A stretch of DNA of 64,000 nt from Chitinophagales bacterium (GTDB lineage: Bacteria > Bacteroidota > Bacteroidia > Chitinophagales > JADIYW01), in NCBI GenBank assembly GCA_041393015.1, contig JAWKKV010000001.1, positions 498,625 to 562,624 on the forward strand, read 5' to 3'. The translations under genes and the position numbers were made by a program. Of the stretch, positions 2,552 through 58,600 are shown piece by piece. Under the pieces are notes generated by a model. It saw nothing but the letters and a program-made list of their open reading frames with translations. It did no database searches and was not told the DNA's origin. Positions within the stretch are counted from its first letter, which is position 1, and every line of letters begins with the position of its first letter.

Positions 2552-4081
2552 ATGCATACTTATATAAACCAAATACATGCCAAAGTTGGAGAAGTCGTAA
2601 CTTTAAAAGGTTGGGTCTCCAATAAACGAAGCAGTAAAACAGTAGTTTTTATTGTTTTAAGAGATGGCACCGGATACTGTCAATGCGTGATTGGAAGCGA
2701 TGCCGTTTCCGAAAATGAATTTAATGAAGCAGACAGTGCTACGTTGGAATCGGCTATTGAATTAACCGGAACCATTATTAAAGATGATCGTCAAGAAGGT
2801 GGCTACGAATTACAAGCTACTTCTTTTACCATTTTACACAAAGCTGAAGAATATCCAATCGCCAAAAGAAAAGGAGAATCGCATGGTGTAGATTTTTTAA
2901 TGGATAATAGACATCTTTGGATAAGAGATAAATCTCAATGGGCCATTCTTAAAGTTAGAAATAGCATTAAACACGCCATCAATAATTATTTTCAAGAGCG
3001 TGATTTCTTACAACTAGACTCACCAATTTTTACAGGAAACGCTGCAGAAGGATCTACCACTTTGTTTGAGACTGATTTTTACGGTCAGCCGGCATATTTA
3101 GCGCAAACCGGACAATTATATGGAGAAGCCGGAGCTATGGCTTTTGGGAAAATCTATACTTTTGGCCCAACTTTTAGAGCTGAAAAAAGTAAAACTAGAA
3201 GGCATTTATCTGAGTTTTGGATGATTGAGCCGGAAGTGGCCTTTGCGACCAACGAAACCAACATGGATCTTATCGAAGACTTCTTAAGAACCATTGTCAA
3301 CCAGTCTATTGAAAACTGTAAAGTAGAGCTGGAAATATTAAATAGAGATATTGATGCTTTGAAAAAAGTAAATCAAGAATTTCCGCGTATTTCTTATGAC
3401 GACGCTATCAAAATTCTAAAAGGGGAAAAAGAAGTAAATGGACAAACTTCTATTCAATTATTAGAAAAAGAAATTCAAGAAGTGGAAGCCTCTATTGCTG
3501 CTTGTGAAAAAGAAATTGAAGAAAGAGAAGCTGCCAATGCTCAACCGGGTGTAAAAAAGGGCGTTAGAAATTTCAATCAAAATAAAATTGACCGTGCAAA
3601 AGTTGAAATTAAAGATCTTACGGAACAATTGAACAACTTACCACAGTGGTTAAGTTCTGCCAAAAACTTCCAGCATGGAGAAGATTTGGGCGGATCTGAT
3701 GAAACGGTTTTAACCAAGCTTTTTGATGCGCCGGTGATGGTGTACAACTGGCCAAAGAAGATCAAAGCTTTTTATATGAAAGAAGTGGACGGTCAGCCTG
3801 ATTATGTTAAAGGTGTAGATGTTTTAGCACCGGAAGGTTATGGTGAAATTGTTGGTGGATCGGAAAGAGAAAGCAACAAAGAAATTTTAACGCAAAGCAT
3901 TAAAGATCATAACTTGCCTATGGAGGCATTTGAATGGTATATGGATTTAAGACGCTACGGTGCTGTGCCTCATGCCGGATTTGGTTTAGGCTTAGAAAGA
4001 TTAGTCAGTTGGGTAACCGGCGTTAAGCACGTAAGAGAAGTTATTCCATTTGCAAGAATGTATGGCAGATTATTTCCATGA
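2552..4081 (+). CDS. asnS: asparagine--tRNA ligase (class IIb) carrying an internal helical insertion
   Basis: OB-fold N-terminus. Class II motifs FGPTFRAEKSKTRRHLSEFWMIEPE and GFGLGLERLV. AsnRS-type KIKAFYMK and GEIVGGSERE. Confidence 0.95.
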   Translation: MHTYINQIHAKVGEVVTLKGWVSNKRSSKTVVFIVLRDGTGYCQCVIGSDAVSENEFNEADSATLESAIELTGTIIKDDRQEGGYELQATSFTILHKAEEYPIAKRKGESHGVDFLMDNRHLWIRDKSQWAILKVRNSIKHAINNYFQERDFLQLDSPIFTGNAAEGSTTLFETDFYGQPAYLAQTGQLYGEAGAMAFGKIYTFGPTFRAEKSKTRRHLSEFWMIEPEVAFATNETNMDLIEDFLRTIVNQSIENCKVELEILNRDIDALKKVNQEFPRISYDDAIKILKGEKEVNGQTSIQLLEKEIQEVEASIAACEKEIEEREAANAQPGVKKGVRNFNQNKIDRAKVEIKDLTEQLNNLPQWLSSAKNFQHGEDLGGSDETVLTKLFDAPVMVYNWPKKIKAFYMKEVDGQPDYVKGVDVLAPEGYGEIVGGSERESNKEILTQSIKDHNLPMEAFEWYMDLRRYGAVPHAGFGLGLERLVSWVTGVKHVREVIPFARMYGRLFP

Positions 4082-5438: not shown

Positions 5439-5550
5439 CTACATACCATTGAGATTAAATGCCGTATTCAAAACCTCTGCCCTTGTTGGTGTTATCACCA
5501 ACAATAAATTCGGCTACAAGCCTTTAAATATAGCTCACTCGGCTGGAGTC

Positions 5551-5808
5551 TAGAAGTGTTAGGAAGACTTTTTTGACACGAATTTCACAAATTTTTATGA
5601 CTATTTAGGATAGTTAAATTGGTTGACTACTTATAAAGTAGAATTATTATAATCGTTAATTTTGGTGTTTATGTTGTTTTAAAAAAATTACATGGATTTT
5701 TGCCGCCAAAGCGGCAAGTTAATCTGTGTAATTGCATATACTAAAAAATTTAGTAGTTCAAATCATCAATGTTATCTGTGAGAATCTGCGAAATTAGTGT
5801 CTGTTTTT
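5551..5808. repeat. conserved non-coding element, copy A (partner at 31424-31677)
   Basis: Conserved blocks shared with copy B: ttttgacacgaattKcacaaattt, attacatggatttttRccRccaaagcggYaagtYaatctgtg, ttagYagttc.aatcat.aat..tatctg, gaaattagt.tc.gtttt. No ORF. Confidence 0.7.
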
Positions 5809-5846
5809 TTCTTTCTAACAGCAATGGGTAGTAGCCGAGCGAGAGC

Positions 5847-31423: not shown

Positions 31424-31677
31424 TAGAAGCGTTATGAAGGCTTCTTTTGACACGAATTGCACAAATTTCTATGATTACATAAGTTAGTTTGATTGACATT
31501 TTACTTCAATTGGCAATCATTTCTCTTCTGTCTTCTAGTTTTTACATTAAAAAGATAATTACATGGATTTTTACCACCAAAGCGGTAAGTCAATCTGTGA
31601 GATTGAAAAAGCTTTTAAAATTAGCAGTTCTAATCATTAATAATATCTGAGTAATTTGTGAAATTAGTATCCGTTTT
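31424..31677. repeat. conserved non-coding element, copy B (partner at 5551-5808)
   Basis: Same block order and orientation as copy A; the variable middle is about 80 nt. No ORF. Confidence 0.7.
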
Positions 31678-31775
31678 GGAAGAATTAATTTTTGGGTCTA
31701 TTTATAATACCGAAAAGGAAATCTATTGACATAATTAACCTCGTCATTATAAATTCCTAGTAAAATCAGTTGGAT

Positions 31776-38214: not shown

Positions 38215-38691
38215 ATGAAGAATTTTTTGAATGTACTATTAATATGCTTTTTAACCACAGGTGTTATTATGGCATGTCCACCAGAAGGAAGTGATGCTAC
38301 TGGCTCTAAAGTTGAAAAAGTAGAATCGGGTGCCATGGTTGAAGGAACATTTGTTACTTTAAACCTAGGTGTTAAAGGAATGACTTGCGGTGGTTGCGAA
38401 AACAAAGTTAAAGCTGCCTTAGGTAGTATTGATGGAGTGGTTGAAACTAAAAAAGTTAGCTCTGAAAGCGACGAAGCTGTTTTAACTTATGATCCTTCAG
38501 TAACAAATGAAGAAACAATTGTAAAAGCGTTAACTGAAAAAACCGGTTATGCTATTGCTGTTTCTAAAGATGGAGCAATGACAGGAGAAGGTGCTACTAA
38601 AGCATCTTGTGCTAAAACTTGCACTAAAGAACAAAAAGCTGCTTGTAATAAAGCAAAAGATGGTGCTGAAGAAAAATTAGAAAAACAATAG
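38215..38691 (+). CDS. exported heavy-metal-associated (HMA) domain protein
   Basis: Signal sequence ending in Cys (IMAC), GMTCGGCENKV metal-binding motif, and a Cys-rich tail CAKTCTKEQKAAC. Confidence 0.75.
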   Translation: MKNFLNVLLICFLTTGVIMACPPEGSDATGSKVEKVESGAMVEGTFVTLNLGVKGMTCGGCENKVKAALGSIDGVVETKKVSSESDEAVLTYDPSVTNEETIVKALTEKTGYAIAVSKDGAMTGEGATKASCAKTCTKEQKAACNKAKDGAEEKLEKQ

Positions 38692-38733
38692 AATCAGATA
38701 AATAGCAATTCATTGCTACAAATTAAATACAAG

Positions 38734-38764
38734 GCCTTTCTCTTTATGGAGAAAGGCTTTTTTT
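38734..38764 (+). terminator. rho-independent terminator
   Basis: gcctttctc / gagaaaggc stem followed by a T7 run. Confidence 0.7.
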
Positions 38765-38788
38765 GTTATTCTAAACTGCTCGATAAGT

Positions 38789-38898
38789 CCTAACGCTTTC
38801 AGGAGCTATACCTACGTAAAAACTTCGGAATATAAATACGCACGCTGAAAGGTTGTACTAACCTTTCAGTGTTCACAAAGTGATCCTGAAAGCGTTAG
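38789..38898. repeat. REP-like nested-hairpin element, left copy
   Basis: Outer stem taacgctttcagg / cctgaaagcgtta. Inner hairpin ctgaaaggtt-gtacta-aacctttcag. Carries a 33-nt insert relative to the right copy. Confidence 0.7.
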
Positions 38899-38910
38899 TT
38901 ATCAATTTAT

Positions 38911-39507
38911 TTATATTTCTTCAAGTTGTTCTATCCATTCACTAAAAGCTATATCATGATAGTTTTTGAATCCTTCAATTCCACCAAACCATTCCAATAC
39001 TTGTTCTCGTTCTAAGAATGTTTTACTATTAGAAGCAAGAAAATTATATGATGAATGTTTCCATTGAGTTCGAGAATTTACTATTTGGTGATGAACTGGA
39101 TTTCGATGTATGTAATTTATAATTTGAGTAAAGTATTCATCACTGTTAATGTGTTTTCTTTTAAACGACTGAATAAATAGTCGGCCCTTTCTTTTATATT
39201 TTAGATTGTGCCATTTGGCAAAGGCATTGAAAAAATGTGAAAACTGAGTTGTTACAAAAGTTTCAATACTAGTTCTCTTTAAAGAAGGCAATTTAACTTC
39301 CATTATCCTTAAGAGGCTTACTTCATCTCTTATCTGAACTAGCCAATGAAAGTGATTTGGAATTAAACAATATGAATAGATTTTTGAAATTGGATAAATG
39401 TACTTCTTCATGAGTTTAATGAAATGTTCGTAGTCTTCATTATTATGAAAAAGAAAAACATTATCAATTGACTTATTATAGATATGATAGCATAGTTCAG
39501 GTTCCAT
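38911..39507 (-). CDS. HUH/Y1 tyrosine transposase, REP-associated (RAYT) or IS200-like
   Basis: HUH motif in LIPNHFHWLV and catalytic-Tyr region IINYIHRNPVHH. N-terminal CYHIYNKS. 198 aa. Confidence 0.85.
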   Translation of the reverse strand: MEPELCYHIYNKSIDNVFLFHNNEDYEHFIKLMKKYIYPISKIYSYCLIPNHFHWLVQIRDEVSLLRIMEVKLPSLKRTSIETFVTTQFSHFFNAFAKWHNLKYKRKGRLFIQSFKRKHINSDEYFTQIINYIHRNPVHHQIVNSRTQWKHSSYNFLASNSKTFLEREQVLEWFGGIEGFKNYHDIAFSEWIEQLEEI

Positions 39508-39590
39508 ATATAGCGATTGTTATACAATAGATTCAAATTTTAAACAAATTCCATAATTCTGAGGAGAAAAAATTGAGATAAAAATCTGGG

Positions 39591-39699
39591 AACAACGCTT
39601 TCAGGAGCTGCGCACGCTGAAAGGTTGTGCTAAATAATGAAAGGTTGTACTAACCTTTCAGTGTTCACAAAGTGATCCTGAAAGCGTTAGAAGTTAAAT
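39591..39699. repeat. REP-like nested-hairpin element, right copy
   Basis: Same outer and inner stems as the left copy. Internal duplication gaaaggttgtgcta / gaaaggttgtacta. Ends 7 nt before the tag stop codon. Confidence 0.7.
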
Positions 39700-39706
39700 A
39701 GGCTCT

Positions 39707-40318
39707 CTATCTCTTATCTAACTCCAAACCTATTTGCTTGGCTTCTTTGATACATTCTTGGTGGCGAAAACAGGTAGTTAAATGATCGTTTACCATTCCA
39801 ACAGCTTGCATAAATGCGTAGCAAATGGTGGACCCGACGAATTTAAATCCTCTCTTCTTCAAATCTTTACTCATAGCGTCTGATTCAGGAGAAGTAGCCA
39901 TAAAATCACCTTTGTCTTTTATATGATTGACAATGACTTTACCATTTGTAAATTGCCATAAATATTGGCTAAAGCTACCTTCTTCTTCCACTAATTTTAA
40001 ATAAGCTTGTGCGTTGGTTACGGCAGCATTTACTTTTAGTCTGTTTCTTATAATTCCGGCATCTTGTAATAGCAACTCTATTTTTTCTGCGTTATAAAGT
40101 GCCATTTTTTCGGGATCTAATCCATCAAAAGCATCAAAATAATTTTGAGTTCTTCTTAGAATAGTGATCCAACTTAAACCGGCTTGTGCGCCATCTAAGA
40201 TTAATTTGGCAAATAAAGCTTTGTCATCTAATTCAGGAACGCCCCATTCTTTATCATGGTAACGAACATACAGCTCGTCCTTACCTGGCCATGGACATCT
40301 ATCTTTCTCGTTACTCAA
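39707..40318 (-). CDS. tag: DNA-3-methyladenine glycosylase I
   Basis: RCPWPGKDELYVRYHDKEWGVP, GLSWITIL, and the C-terminal zinc-ligand context (H..TC). Confidence 0.92.
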   Translation of the reverse strand: MSNEKDRCPWPGKDELYVRYHDKEWGVPELDDKALFAKLILDGAQAGLSWITILRRTQNYFDAFDGLDPEKMALYNAEKIELLLQDAGIIRNRLKVNAAVTNAQAYLKLVEEEGSFSQYLWQFTNGKVIVNHIKDKGDFMATSPESDAMSKDLKKRGFKFVGSTICYAFMQAVGMVNDHLTTCFRHQECIKEAKQIGLELDKR

Positions 40319-55604: not shown

Positions 55605-58600
55605 CTACAATAAATTCTTTTTAGACATTACAGCACTTATTTTATTGGTTAATTCGTCAATGTTAATCGGTTTTGTTACACACTCATTCATGCCAGCATT
55701 AAAACAAGCTTCAATTTGTTGAGGTATAGCATTCGCCGTTAATCCTAAAATAGGAATGTTTTTATAGTAATTTTCTCCTTTTGCTCTTATCAATTGGGTG
55801 GCTTCTAATCCATCCATAATTGGCATTTTTATATCCATTAAAACTAAATCGTACGATTTATTTTCTATTTTATCCAGTGCCTCTTTCCCATTGTTCGCCT
55901 TTTCAATTATCGGATTTTTTAAATGTTTTTGAAGTAATTCAACTGCAACAAATTGATTCATGGGAGTGTCTTCAACCAATAAAATTTTAAGTCCTTCAGG
56001 AATGTATTGCTGCTCCGTTTTTTCATTTTTAAGCGTTTCTTTAGCAATTTGAAAAGGAAGCGTAAAATAGAATTTTGATCCCTGATTAAATTCAGACTCC
56101 ACTTTAATTTCTCCTCCCATTAATTCCACTAATTCTTTGGCAATAGACAACCCTAAACCCGTTCCTTGATTTCCAAAATTCTTAGTTTTAGTGCTTCCAA
56201 CCTGCTCAAAACTTTTAAATATTGATTCTAGCTGATCTTTTTGAATACCTATTCCTGTATCTTCTACTTCAAATAATAGATTTGCTGTTTCATTTTTTGT
56301 TTCTTGCTGAGTAACGCTAACTGTAATGCTTCCTTCTTCCGTAAATTTTATGGCATTTCCAATAAGATTGGTGAGCACCTGAAAAATACGAATGGGATCG
56401 CCTATAACGCTTTCGGGAATAGTCTCATCGAGTTTCAAAATAAACTGTATGTCTTTTTCCTGGATTTTATTGATCAACAATAGCTTTACTTGATCGATTA
56501 CTGCTTTGATATTAAATGGCTCAGACTTAATTTTTAGTTTGCCACTTTCAATTTTTGCCTGATCGAGAATGTCATTGATGATCCATAATAAATTTTCGCA
56601 AGACAAATGGATGGCTTTTGTGTATTCCTTTTGTTTTTCGTTCAACTCTGACCCTAACATCAAGGTAATTAAACCCATAATTGCATTCATGGGCGTTCTT
56701 AACTCATGACTCATATTGGTCAGAAACTTGGTTTTATATAGTGCTTTTTGATCTGCAAGTTGTCTTTCTTGTTTTAGTTTCTCTGTCCTTTTCCAATTTA
56801 GAAAAATCAAATACATAATTAGAAAAATTAGACCAACGATACTTGCATAAAACCAATTGGTCTTCCAAAATGGAGGCGTAACTACAATTTCCAACTCTAA
56901 AGTATCTGTAACTTTAAAACCATTCTCGTTGGTTGCCTCCGCTAAAAAAGTATAATTCCCTGGAAATAAATTGGTAAATGTTACAGTTCTTCTATTCTCT
57001 ACATCCACCCATTCTTCGTTAAAACCAATCAATTTATACCTATAAGTTAAGTTATCTTGATTGGTATAATTTAATGCCGTGTATTCAATTTCAAAGACAG
57101 TTTCCTTAGGTTGAAGTTTTATTTTTTTAATATATTCTATTGCTTTGTCAAACTTCTTTTCTTTATACGATACTGAAAATTTAGACAAAACGATGGCAAC
57201 TTTATTGGTATCAAAGTCTTCAATTTCGGGATTGATTACTAGTAAACCATCACTTCCTCCAAAATATAGCTTACCATTTTTACCTTTAAATCTTGACCCT
57301 GTTATAAAGCCTTTTGTTTCTTTGTTTAAATTGTAGAATACAAAACTATCTGTTTGGGGATTATAAGCTCTTACATTACTTCCACCGGCCATCCAAACAT
57401 TTCCATCGTTGGCTAACAGTACCGCTGTAGCACCAGTAATTTTAGGATAATTCTCATTTGTATAATTAACAAACCGCTCTTTATTTATATCAAAATATGA
57501 AAAATCACTACCTGATAAATATATCCTATCAACATCTGCCACTAAATTATAGGCAACACCTGAACTCCAAGCAGTTGCATCTTGTTCATCTGTTTTATAT
57601 GCCTTTAATTTGTTTGTTTGAGGATTATAAGAACACAGCCTTCTCGAGTTTGTAAACCACAAAGTACCATTCGCTTGTTGATCTAAAATGGATAACTTAT
57701 CATTTGCCAATGTGGTATCTAAGATGGACGGATACACCCAAAATGTATCTTTTGTAACCATATTGTACCTGCATAAACCGCCTAATGTTGCCAACCAAAC
57801 TATAGAAGAATTTTCCTTATCAAAAAGAAATTCTTCAAGGTAGTTTCCTTTGAAAAATTGGCTTGTTTCAACCTCAACTATTTCTTCTGATTGATTAATT
57901 GTTTTATACAATCCTTTTCGTTGAATGGTAAACCATATATCACCTTCTTTATCTTCTTCAAAATCTCGCACAGAGGTTAAATCTTCATAAGCTGTATTTA
58001 CCCCTGAAAAATGTCTAGAAACTGATTGAATATTATCTTTTAAGTAGATTCCTGTAATGGTTGACGTCCAAACCCTTTTTTTTGAATCTACTATAATATC
58101 TAATATGGTATTGCTTAAATTATTAAGACCATATTCGTTATAGAACACTTTAAATTTTTCTGAGGATTTACTTAATATATCAGCATTTCTAAACATGCCA
58201 ATCCAAATATTATCTTGGTTATCTCTCATTAAAGAATAGATATTATCGACAGTAATGCCACCTGGATTATTACTTGAATAGGCATGATGAATAATAGGTT
58301 TCCTAAGTTTAACATCCCAGTGAACCAACCCTAATCCACTGCCAATATAAAACGTATTATTATCTCCTAAAATAAGGGCTTTAACATCTGGTTTAATTAA
58401 TTTGTCTGATATGGGAACATGCTCAAATTTACCCTCGTTTAAATAAAAAATAAATAAGCCATCATCCGTTGCTAACCAATAATTATAAGATGAATCTTGC
58501 ACAATTCTTCTCACTAAAATTGGATTCCCTTCTTCATTTATAAGGGGAAAATAATCTAACTTATTTTCTTTTTCATTTACTTTATAAATACCATTAATAC

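Follow-up and report, generated by a model that had tools for sequence, protein, structure and literature searches.

The 64-kb window (the whole stretch of DNA analysed, 64,000 nucleotides from a Chitinophagales bacterium) carries a small reverse-strand gene, encoding a REP-associated tyrosine transposase (RAYT), in the spacer between two convergent genes, with one repeat element on each side of it (Table 1). The neighbours are a gene for an HMA-domain protein and tag, the 3-methyladenine glycosylase gene. A terminator scan placed the stem of the HMA terminator at 38731-38760, directly followed by the T run; this terminator, which is also present at two related loci (L024 and L107), bounds the inserted unit on its left side. 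A preliminary description of the locus had set the unit just after the HMA terminator, where it indeed begins, and 7 nt from the tag stop codon, where the gap is in fact 16 nt. Only one copy of the RAYT gene is found within the window, and a search of the same 64 kb for a second full unit returned none.

Table 1. Coordinates of the RAYT gene, its flanking repeats and the neighbouring features, numbered from the first nucleotide of the window
Feature	Position	Strand	Remarks
HMA-domain gene	38215-38691	+	
Intrinsic terminator of the HMA gene	38731-38768	+	Terminator scan; 13-bp stem and T run
Left REP doublet, REPIN-like	38790-38898		109 nt; 3' of the RAYT stop codon
Left REP-a	38792-38854	+	Broken by an insert of ~32 nt, 38808-38839
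Left spacer	between REP-a and REP-b		5 nt, GTACT
Left REP-b	38860-38896	-	Pattern match
RAYT / TnpA_REP-like HUH-Y1 gene	38911-39507	-	198 aa; ORF list and NCBIfam REP_Tyr_transpos
Right REP doublet	39593-39690		98 nt; 5' of the RAYT start codon
Right REP-a	39594-39626	+	Pattern match
Right internal duplication	about 39632-39651		~20 nt
Right REP-b	39652-39688	-	Pattern match
tag (3-methyladenine glycosylase gene)	39707-40318	-	Stop codon 39707-39709

The two elements have an exact block of 53 nt in common (38846-38898 and 39638-39690), for which none of 100 shuffles gave a match; the identity of the block had been recognized earlier, with a length of 52 nt that is one short. In both elements a hairpin unit of 33-37 nt, AACGCTTTCAGGA-N10-14-CTGAAAGGTT, occurs as an inverted doublet. 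This pattern matches three of the units directly, the fourth (left REP-a) being broken by the insert. The 12-nt outer stem AACGCTTTCAGG has four perfect occurrences in the 64 kb, at 38792 (+), 38885 (-), 39594 (+) and 39677 (-), all of them inside the two elements, where about 0.21 hits would be expected by chance; a fifth match, with one mismatch, is located at 56406. The inner hairpin CTGAAAGGTT-GTACT-AACCTTTCAG is likewise present in both elements, so that the architecture of an outer stem around an inner hairpin is as first described. The single unit can be written as a bulged hairpin, AAC-G-CTTTCAG-apical stem-loop-G-CTGAAAG-GTT. Even under relaxed matching no copies of the unit were detected elsewhere in the window, and no Rfam family was matched by the elements, either in the region at E ≤ 10 or in the whole window at gathering scores.

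Folding of the elements as single-stranded DNA gave -28.3 kcal/mol for the left one (z -9.5) and -25.9 kcal/mol for the right one (z -6.7), and none of 200 shuffles folded as well. The minimum-energy structure is a long hairpin with a three-way junction (-20 to -28 kcal/mol, z -5.5 to -9.5), and each doublet can fold in two ways, as two hairpins side by side or as one such long hairpin. The elements thus display what defines a REPIN, i.e. two inverted REPs, a short spacer and a fold into one hairpin. The signature of canonical GTAG-type REPs is missing from them, as the foot of the hairpin reads (CT)AACG, or CGTT(AG) on the other strand, with no GT[AG]G.

Relative to each other the whole doublets lie in direct orientation, an arrangement that had been taken to resemble the two ends of an IS200/IS605 element more than REPIN doublets. 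This argument is not supported, since each element is itself a REPIN. With a doublet on either side, the gene has as its immediate neighbours two mutually inverted units (left REP-b on the minus strand and right REP-a on the plus strand), and the direct orientation of the doublets therefore does not favour an insertion sequence. In the arrangement originally described, the RAYT gene is flanked by REPs in inverted orientation (PMC2817692), and the E. coli REPtron is likewise made of REP pairs (PMC6006769). The outermost 13-15 nt of the 0.9-kb unit form terminal inverted repeats.

The closest homologous locus (L024), which also lies between tag and HMA and encodes a protein of 97% identity, has an uninterrupted doublet of 77 nt on one side and, on the other, the same insert as the left element here. 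Measured against the 77-nt form, the insert of about 32 nt on the left and the internal duplication of about 20 nt on the right, both noted at the outset, are confirmed, and the comparison indicates that the duplication is recent and the insert older. The 53-nt block has the loop GTACT in its two copies here, as against GTGCT in the two copies of L024; blocks that are identical within a genome yet different between genomes indicate recent exchange between the flanks.

The translation of the 198-aa ORF reads CLIPNHFHWLV and INYIHRNPVHH, bearing out the HUH motif and the region of the catalytic tyrosine that had been pointed out. The HUH motif corresponds to H52-F53-H54, and Tyr132 lies within YIHRNP, which is the class-2 (RAYT / TnpA_REP) motif Y-x-x-x-N-P; the class-1 motif Y[IV]ENQ of IS200 is absent. 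An HUH motif and a single tyrosine on an HUH fold assign the protein to the HUH-Y1 (TnpA_Y1) superfamily. In an alignment of 26 relatives H52, H54, Y132, N136 and P137 are invariant, and the core is followed by an SS motif (S152, S153).

With curated profiles the protein scores low. Pfam Y1_Tnp, the model by which its identity was initially to be judged, gives 15.1 bits (E 0.027) and thus stays below its threshold of 23. NCBIfam REP_Tyr_transpos (NF047646) is the better match, with 48.1 bits and an E-value of 1e-12, which is significant yet below the cutoff of 80. Significant but sub-threshold scores on both profiles indicate a divergent clade. REP_Tyr_transpos matches all 26 aligned relatives (best 3e-20), and Pfam Y1_Tnp at E 0.01 is reached by 7 of the 26.

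In the PDB the sole match of the family profile was 4ER8, the E. coli TnpA_REP (E 1.5e-6), with no match to IS200/IS608 chains; a search with the single sequence gave no match, 4ER8 being reached by the family profile alone. The AlphaFold (AF2) model has a pLDDT of 94.2, and in Foldseek its best match was again 4ER8 (E 1.1e-7), followed by the TnpA proteins of ISDra2, IS608 and IS200 (IS200/IS605) at about 4e-4 or weaker. Judged from the profile and the predicted fold, the protein is nearer to REP-associated transposases than to IS200 transposases.

The resemblance to the E. coli REPtron (TnpA_REP / RayT, yafM; subclass 2.2; 4ER8) covers a single HUH-Y1 gene with REP pairs (REPINs/BIMEs) on both sides, the Y---NP motif, the best profile and fold match, and doublets that are heterodimers of two REP variants (Y and Z2 in E. 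coli). However, identity in the structural alignment is about 14%, and the host here belongs to the Bacteroidota. In the alignment of the family profile to 4ER8, F111 occupies the position of the conserved W94 of E. coli, and the residues that read GTAG in the E. coli protein (W94, Q95, E100 and R104) are replaced (4ER8 alignment; PMC6006769). Likewise, the hairpins are AT-rich, carry bulged Gs and lack a GT[AG]G foot. The loss of GTAG-contacting residues, as read from the alignment, would fit hairpins of this type.

The association of gene and hairpin is not confined to this locus. The family comprises about 1,700 representatives (50%-identity clusters) at E ≤ 1e-30 with the family profile; named homologues are almost all from Bacteroidota and Balneolaceae, and most relatives are called hypothetical or have no Pfam domain. 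Among 57 related metagenome loci, chosen for sufficient flank, 33 have a repeat shared between the two flanks that scores above the maximum of the control, for which mismatched flanks were used. Most of these shared repeats are hairpins of ~33 nt, ACC-N5-GGTTTT..AAAACC-N5-GGT, situated 10-60 nt upstream of the start codon and 0-40 nt downstream of the stop codon. In the 250-nt flanks the density of this class of hairpin is 57-fold that found at more than 600 nt from the gene. Four typical copies occur 0.7-2.4 kb away from the gene, among 5 pattern hits where about 0.7 are expected. In three loci the hairpin is found within the ORF itself, in the part that separates the HUH from the Tyr motif, and in one of these (L025) the reading frame remains open.

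The sequence of the repeats varies with the protein. The next-closest homologue after L024 (L106, 68% identity) bears the same REP units as those described here, and a more distant one (L059, 34% identity) carries a compensated variant, AACGCTGTCAGG...CGCTGACAGGTT. Some relatives, such as L059, have asymmetric single hairpins, and their flanks are direct rather than inverted. In the P0034 lineage (L109-L116) the hairpins are organized as tandem arrays of AACCTTTCAGG...CCTGAAAGGTT, with the same stem core as here; the array unit is a 32-nt hairpin, AACCTTTCAGGTTTTTTCCAACCTGAAAGGTT, with constant spacers of ~16 nt. Upstream of the gene, which occupies about 3001-3627, the arrays hold 2-3 copies, and downstream of it about 4-10, with the number varying between samples, and the aconitase-RAYT-nusB context is fixed across L109-L116 despite the variation of the arrays.

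Two of the homologous loci have further features. In a Balneolaceae genome (GCA_034521835.1; L025, 1-6615) the RAYT homologue P0009, with 44% identity, is located between cas6b and cas1 in a type I-B-like cas operon; the hairpin GACCTTCCAGGTTT..AAACCTGGAAGGTC is present there in 5 copies within 6.6 kb, the sites including a cas3-like ORF and, in frame, the RAYT gene. In L106 a direct repeat of ~52 nt lies outside the REPs on both sides (52-110 and 891-950), and its copies, although they differ at three synonymous positions, encode an identical C-terminal peptide, NKIFQTNTMAFCEMYFV*; the 3' end of a gene could have been duplicated here, or two strains could have been joined as a chimera in the assembly. 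A kinship of the clade to the "orphan" CGTC-tagged REPs (Di Nocera et al., PMC3733652) was considered for those relatives whose hairpins end in ...CAGCGTC. It was rejected as unsupported, the polarity of the tag relative to the stem being opposite; the published CGTC stems, which start with AT, span 8-9 bp and have a CCA tail (PMC3733652), also counted against such a link.

The REP unit is also encountered without the gene. A scan of species-representative genomes, a set to which the source genome does not belong, yielded 26 occurrences of the 33-nt unit, spread over 23 loci, and a RAYT homologue is encoded in 0 of the 23. The carriers are several Bacteroidota MAGs, several Gracilimonas and Balneolaceae genomes and one MAG labelled Cohaesibacter, with 9 of the 23 loci held by one Bacteroidota MAG. 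Nearly all unit sites (24 of 26) are outside ORFs of at least 90 aa. The hairpin, with bulged G4 and G23, shows two-sided changes at 5 of its 14 pairs. Two of these, the apical pairs 14-20 and 15-19, were not fixed by the search pattern, and pair 14-20 is found as CG (12), GC (8) and GU (2). Overall, 92% of cells are paired, compared with 18-49% for slid registers.

Within this set, a Balneolaceae contig (PWWL01000334.1; L005, 425-2166) contains five 33-nt units, four of them in tandem ~175 nt apart within a larger repeated module, and one copy with compensatory stem changes, GCTGTAAGG/CTTACAGG. In the MAG Y22_45dBSe2.bin.130 and in a Bacteroidales MAG (L001-L021) the unit is part of a composite extragenic element of ~150 nt, whose other half consists of another type of hairpin, GACCTGACAGCGTC..GACCTGTCAGCGTC, enclosed by the outer arms GTCCAAAAA/TTTTTAGAC. 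The latter composites suggest mosaic (BIME-like) repeats assembled from several related REP types.

The HMA-tag spacer of a relative, HKST-UBA60 (85% identical Tag), provides an unoccupied counterpart of the locus. There tag and HMA are adjacent, with the same terminator and with neither the gene nor a REP between them. The comparison with relatives that had been suggested thereby shows a site lacking the unit, but a clean empty site has to be rejected: the spacer is filled by about 110 nt of unrelated sequence, and on account of this sequence insertion and replacement are indistinguishable. The absence of the unit from this relative points to some mobility or loss, as does a solo REP-like unit elsewhere in the HKST-UBA60 assembly, which has no homologue near it. 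At its left edge (38790-38794) the unit of the window bears the pentamer CTAAC, which recurs at the aligned position of the unoccupied site (L107, about 2866-2870); it might be a target or cleavage motif, although this is a single case and may be due to chance.

Taken together, these data make it very probable that the locus is a REPtron, that is, a chromosomal and probably single-copy class-2 RAYT / TnpA_REP gene bracketed by two cognate repeats. Weighing against this reading are the lack of further REP units in the 64 kb, the scores below the curated cutoffs of both profiles, the hairpin foot without GT[AG]G together with the replaced GTAG-reading residues, and the direct flanks of relatives such as L059. 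The core of the preliminary description, an HUH/Y1 protein with its own hairpin repeats on both flanks, is accordingly supported. The alternatives it had left side by side, a compact mobile unit or a domesticated RAYT with its REP source, are no longer equal, as the evidence favours the latter.

By analogy with E. coli TnpA_REP and IS608 TnpA, a mechanism can be proposed in which the protein would bind the REP hairpin in single-stranded DNA, e.g. on the lagging-strand template, with H52 and H54 holding a divalent metal. Tyr132 would cut beside the foot of the hairpin to give a 5'-phosphotyrosine link, and the cut strand would then be rejoined to another REP end. REP units or doublets would be moved or copied in this way, but not the gene itself. 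From these parallels we infer that the protein is catalytic, that cleavage would take place next to the hairpin and that repeats may currently be mobilized in the source genome.

The most serious competitor of an active REPtron, although rather unlikely, is a REPtron without a repeat population, in which the gene and its two doublets would be all that the genome contains, as a result of recent acquisition or decay, with nothing being mobilized at present. REPtrons lacking a matching REP family have been reported (PMC3733652), and the window indeed holds no further copies; still, 64 kb is too small to exclude tens of copies. The insert in one flank and the duplication in the other, together with the variable presence of the unit among close relatives, could be regarded as traces of such a history. 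Conversely, the ORF is intact with all catalytic residues kept, the 53-nt blocks that agree within and differ between genomes indicate recent flank exchange, and the solo unit of HKST-UBA60 lies far from homologues. The window sets the same scope for a comparison with the REPINs of Pseudomonas fluorescens (Bertels and Rainey 2011, PMC3116915), which share the inverted REP pair, the short spacer, the long hairpin and the position next to a RAYT gene. What defines those REPINs is a population of tens to hundreds of copies throughout the genome, whereas for the elements here the source genome is covered over 64 kb.

An autonomous insertion sequence of the IS200 type that comprises the entire 0.9 kb (38790-39690), with the elements as its ends and the gene moving along, is improbable. 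Such a reading can draw on the size, which is that of IS200, on the direct orientation of the doublets, on the terminal inverted repeats, on the absence of the unit from the tag-HMA spacer of the relative with the 85% identical Tag, and on the CTAAC common to the occupied and the unoccupied site. With IS200/IS605 elements (IS200, IS608 and ISDra2) the locus also shares the HUH-Y1 fold (E about 4e-4), hairpins on both sides and a unit of about 0.9 kb. However, the tyrosine motif is Y---NP and not Y[IV]ENQ, the best profile and fold match is TnpA_REP with no profile match to IS200-type chains, and the unoccupied site is not clean. Nor is any multi-copy behaviour seen: neither multiple contexts nor near-identical copies, both of which were sought, were found. 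The window contains no second copy, and among 80 loci there are no near-identical pairs at 85% nucleotide identity over at least 300 nt. The two most widely sampled homologue clusters are each in one fixed gene context, on 24 and 19 contigs, and the REP unit is found alone in other genomes.

Least probable is that the hairpins are mainly transcription or RNA elements (terminators or insulators) that neighbour the gene independently of protein activity: the elements do lie between convergent gene ends, one inner hairpin is terminator-like on the minus strand in the terminator scan and effects of REPs on mRNA stability and termination are known (PMC3733652), but the HMA gene has a canonical terminator of its own upstream of the element, the pairing of gene and hairpin recurs in unrelated contexts (33 of 57) with the hairpin sequence changing alongside the protein, hairpins are inserted within ORFs, and Rfam gives no match.

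As a REPtron, the locus belongs to a group of systems that was thought in the preliminary description to be characterized mainly in Proteobacteria. This view is outdated, since RAYT subclasses 2.4 and 2.6, both rich in Bacteroidetes, were described in 2018 (Quentin et al., PMC6006769). Subclass 2.6 has atypical flanking structures without GTAG and with copies elsewhere in the genome; proteins of subclass 2.4 have NH[IFV]H and are about 194 aa long, and REPs are inserted in frame in their genes, between HUH and Tyr (PMC6006769). The motifs listed for them are WQ and YIH[QN]NP or YIxNNP, and the tabulated REPs combine GCTRG with GC-rich stems in 2.6 and GTAG with GGAC... in 2.4 (PMC6006769).

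Compared by these published motifs and the REP table, the present system shares its phylum and class-2 motif with both subclasses (2.6 being Bertels group 5 and 2.4 group 4). The SS motif (S152, S153) and the non-GTAG flanking structures are as in 2.6, while NHFH and, in relatives, hairpins within ORFs between HUH and Tyr are as in 2.4. On the other hand, the clade has an invariant LF instead of WQ, together with YIHxNP, and the REPs tabulated for the two subclasses (Table S1) resemble neither AACGCTTTCAGG nor the ACC..GGTTTT..AAAACC..GGT hairpins. The hairpin class of this clade is absent from the 2018 table of manually identified REPs (PMC6006769). The survey of Quentin et al. was filtered by Pfam Y1_Tnp (PMC6006769), and the clade may be under-sampled in it because only 7 of 26 members reach this profile at E 0.01.

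Tentatively, and with the odds somewhat against it, the ~200-aa Bacteroidota clade may represent an undescribed RAYT subclass between IS200-type elements and classical REPtrons. Such a subclass would be marked by an invariant F in place of W94 and the loss of the GTAG-reading residues, and its proteins would recognize AT-rich hairpins whose foot is ACC...GGT (here of the bulged AACGCTTTCAGG type). Its flanking hairpins would often be direct or in tandem arrays of variable copy number, and hairpins would occur within ORFs, at least once in frame. The subclass, if real, would have been largely missed because Pfam Y1_Tnp fails to detect the clade.

The system is of a known kind, in a little-charted branch, with no new mechanism, and the understanding of how such systems work is unchanged. 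Its value lies in a clear, well-delimited RAYT with repeat doublets in the Bacteroidota, where such systems are barely annotated, and in a pair of hairpin and protein that is offered for the biochemistry of DNA recognition by RAYTs not using GTAG. The unoccupied site, the concerted flanks, the variable arrays and the hairpins within ORFs point to ongoing repeat dynamics in the clade.

Apart from the RAYT locus, the window contains two intergenic regions of about 260 nt each (5550-5810 and 31424-31680) with a mutual identity of roughly 80%. Neither of them matched an Rfam family at gathering score, and the pair could correspond to a small RNA, to a regulatory region common to both sites or to a further repeat.
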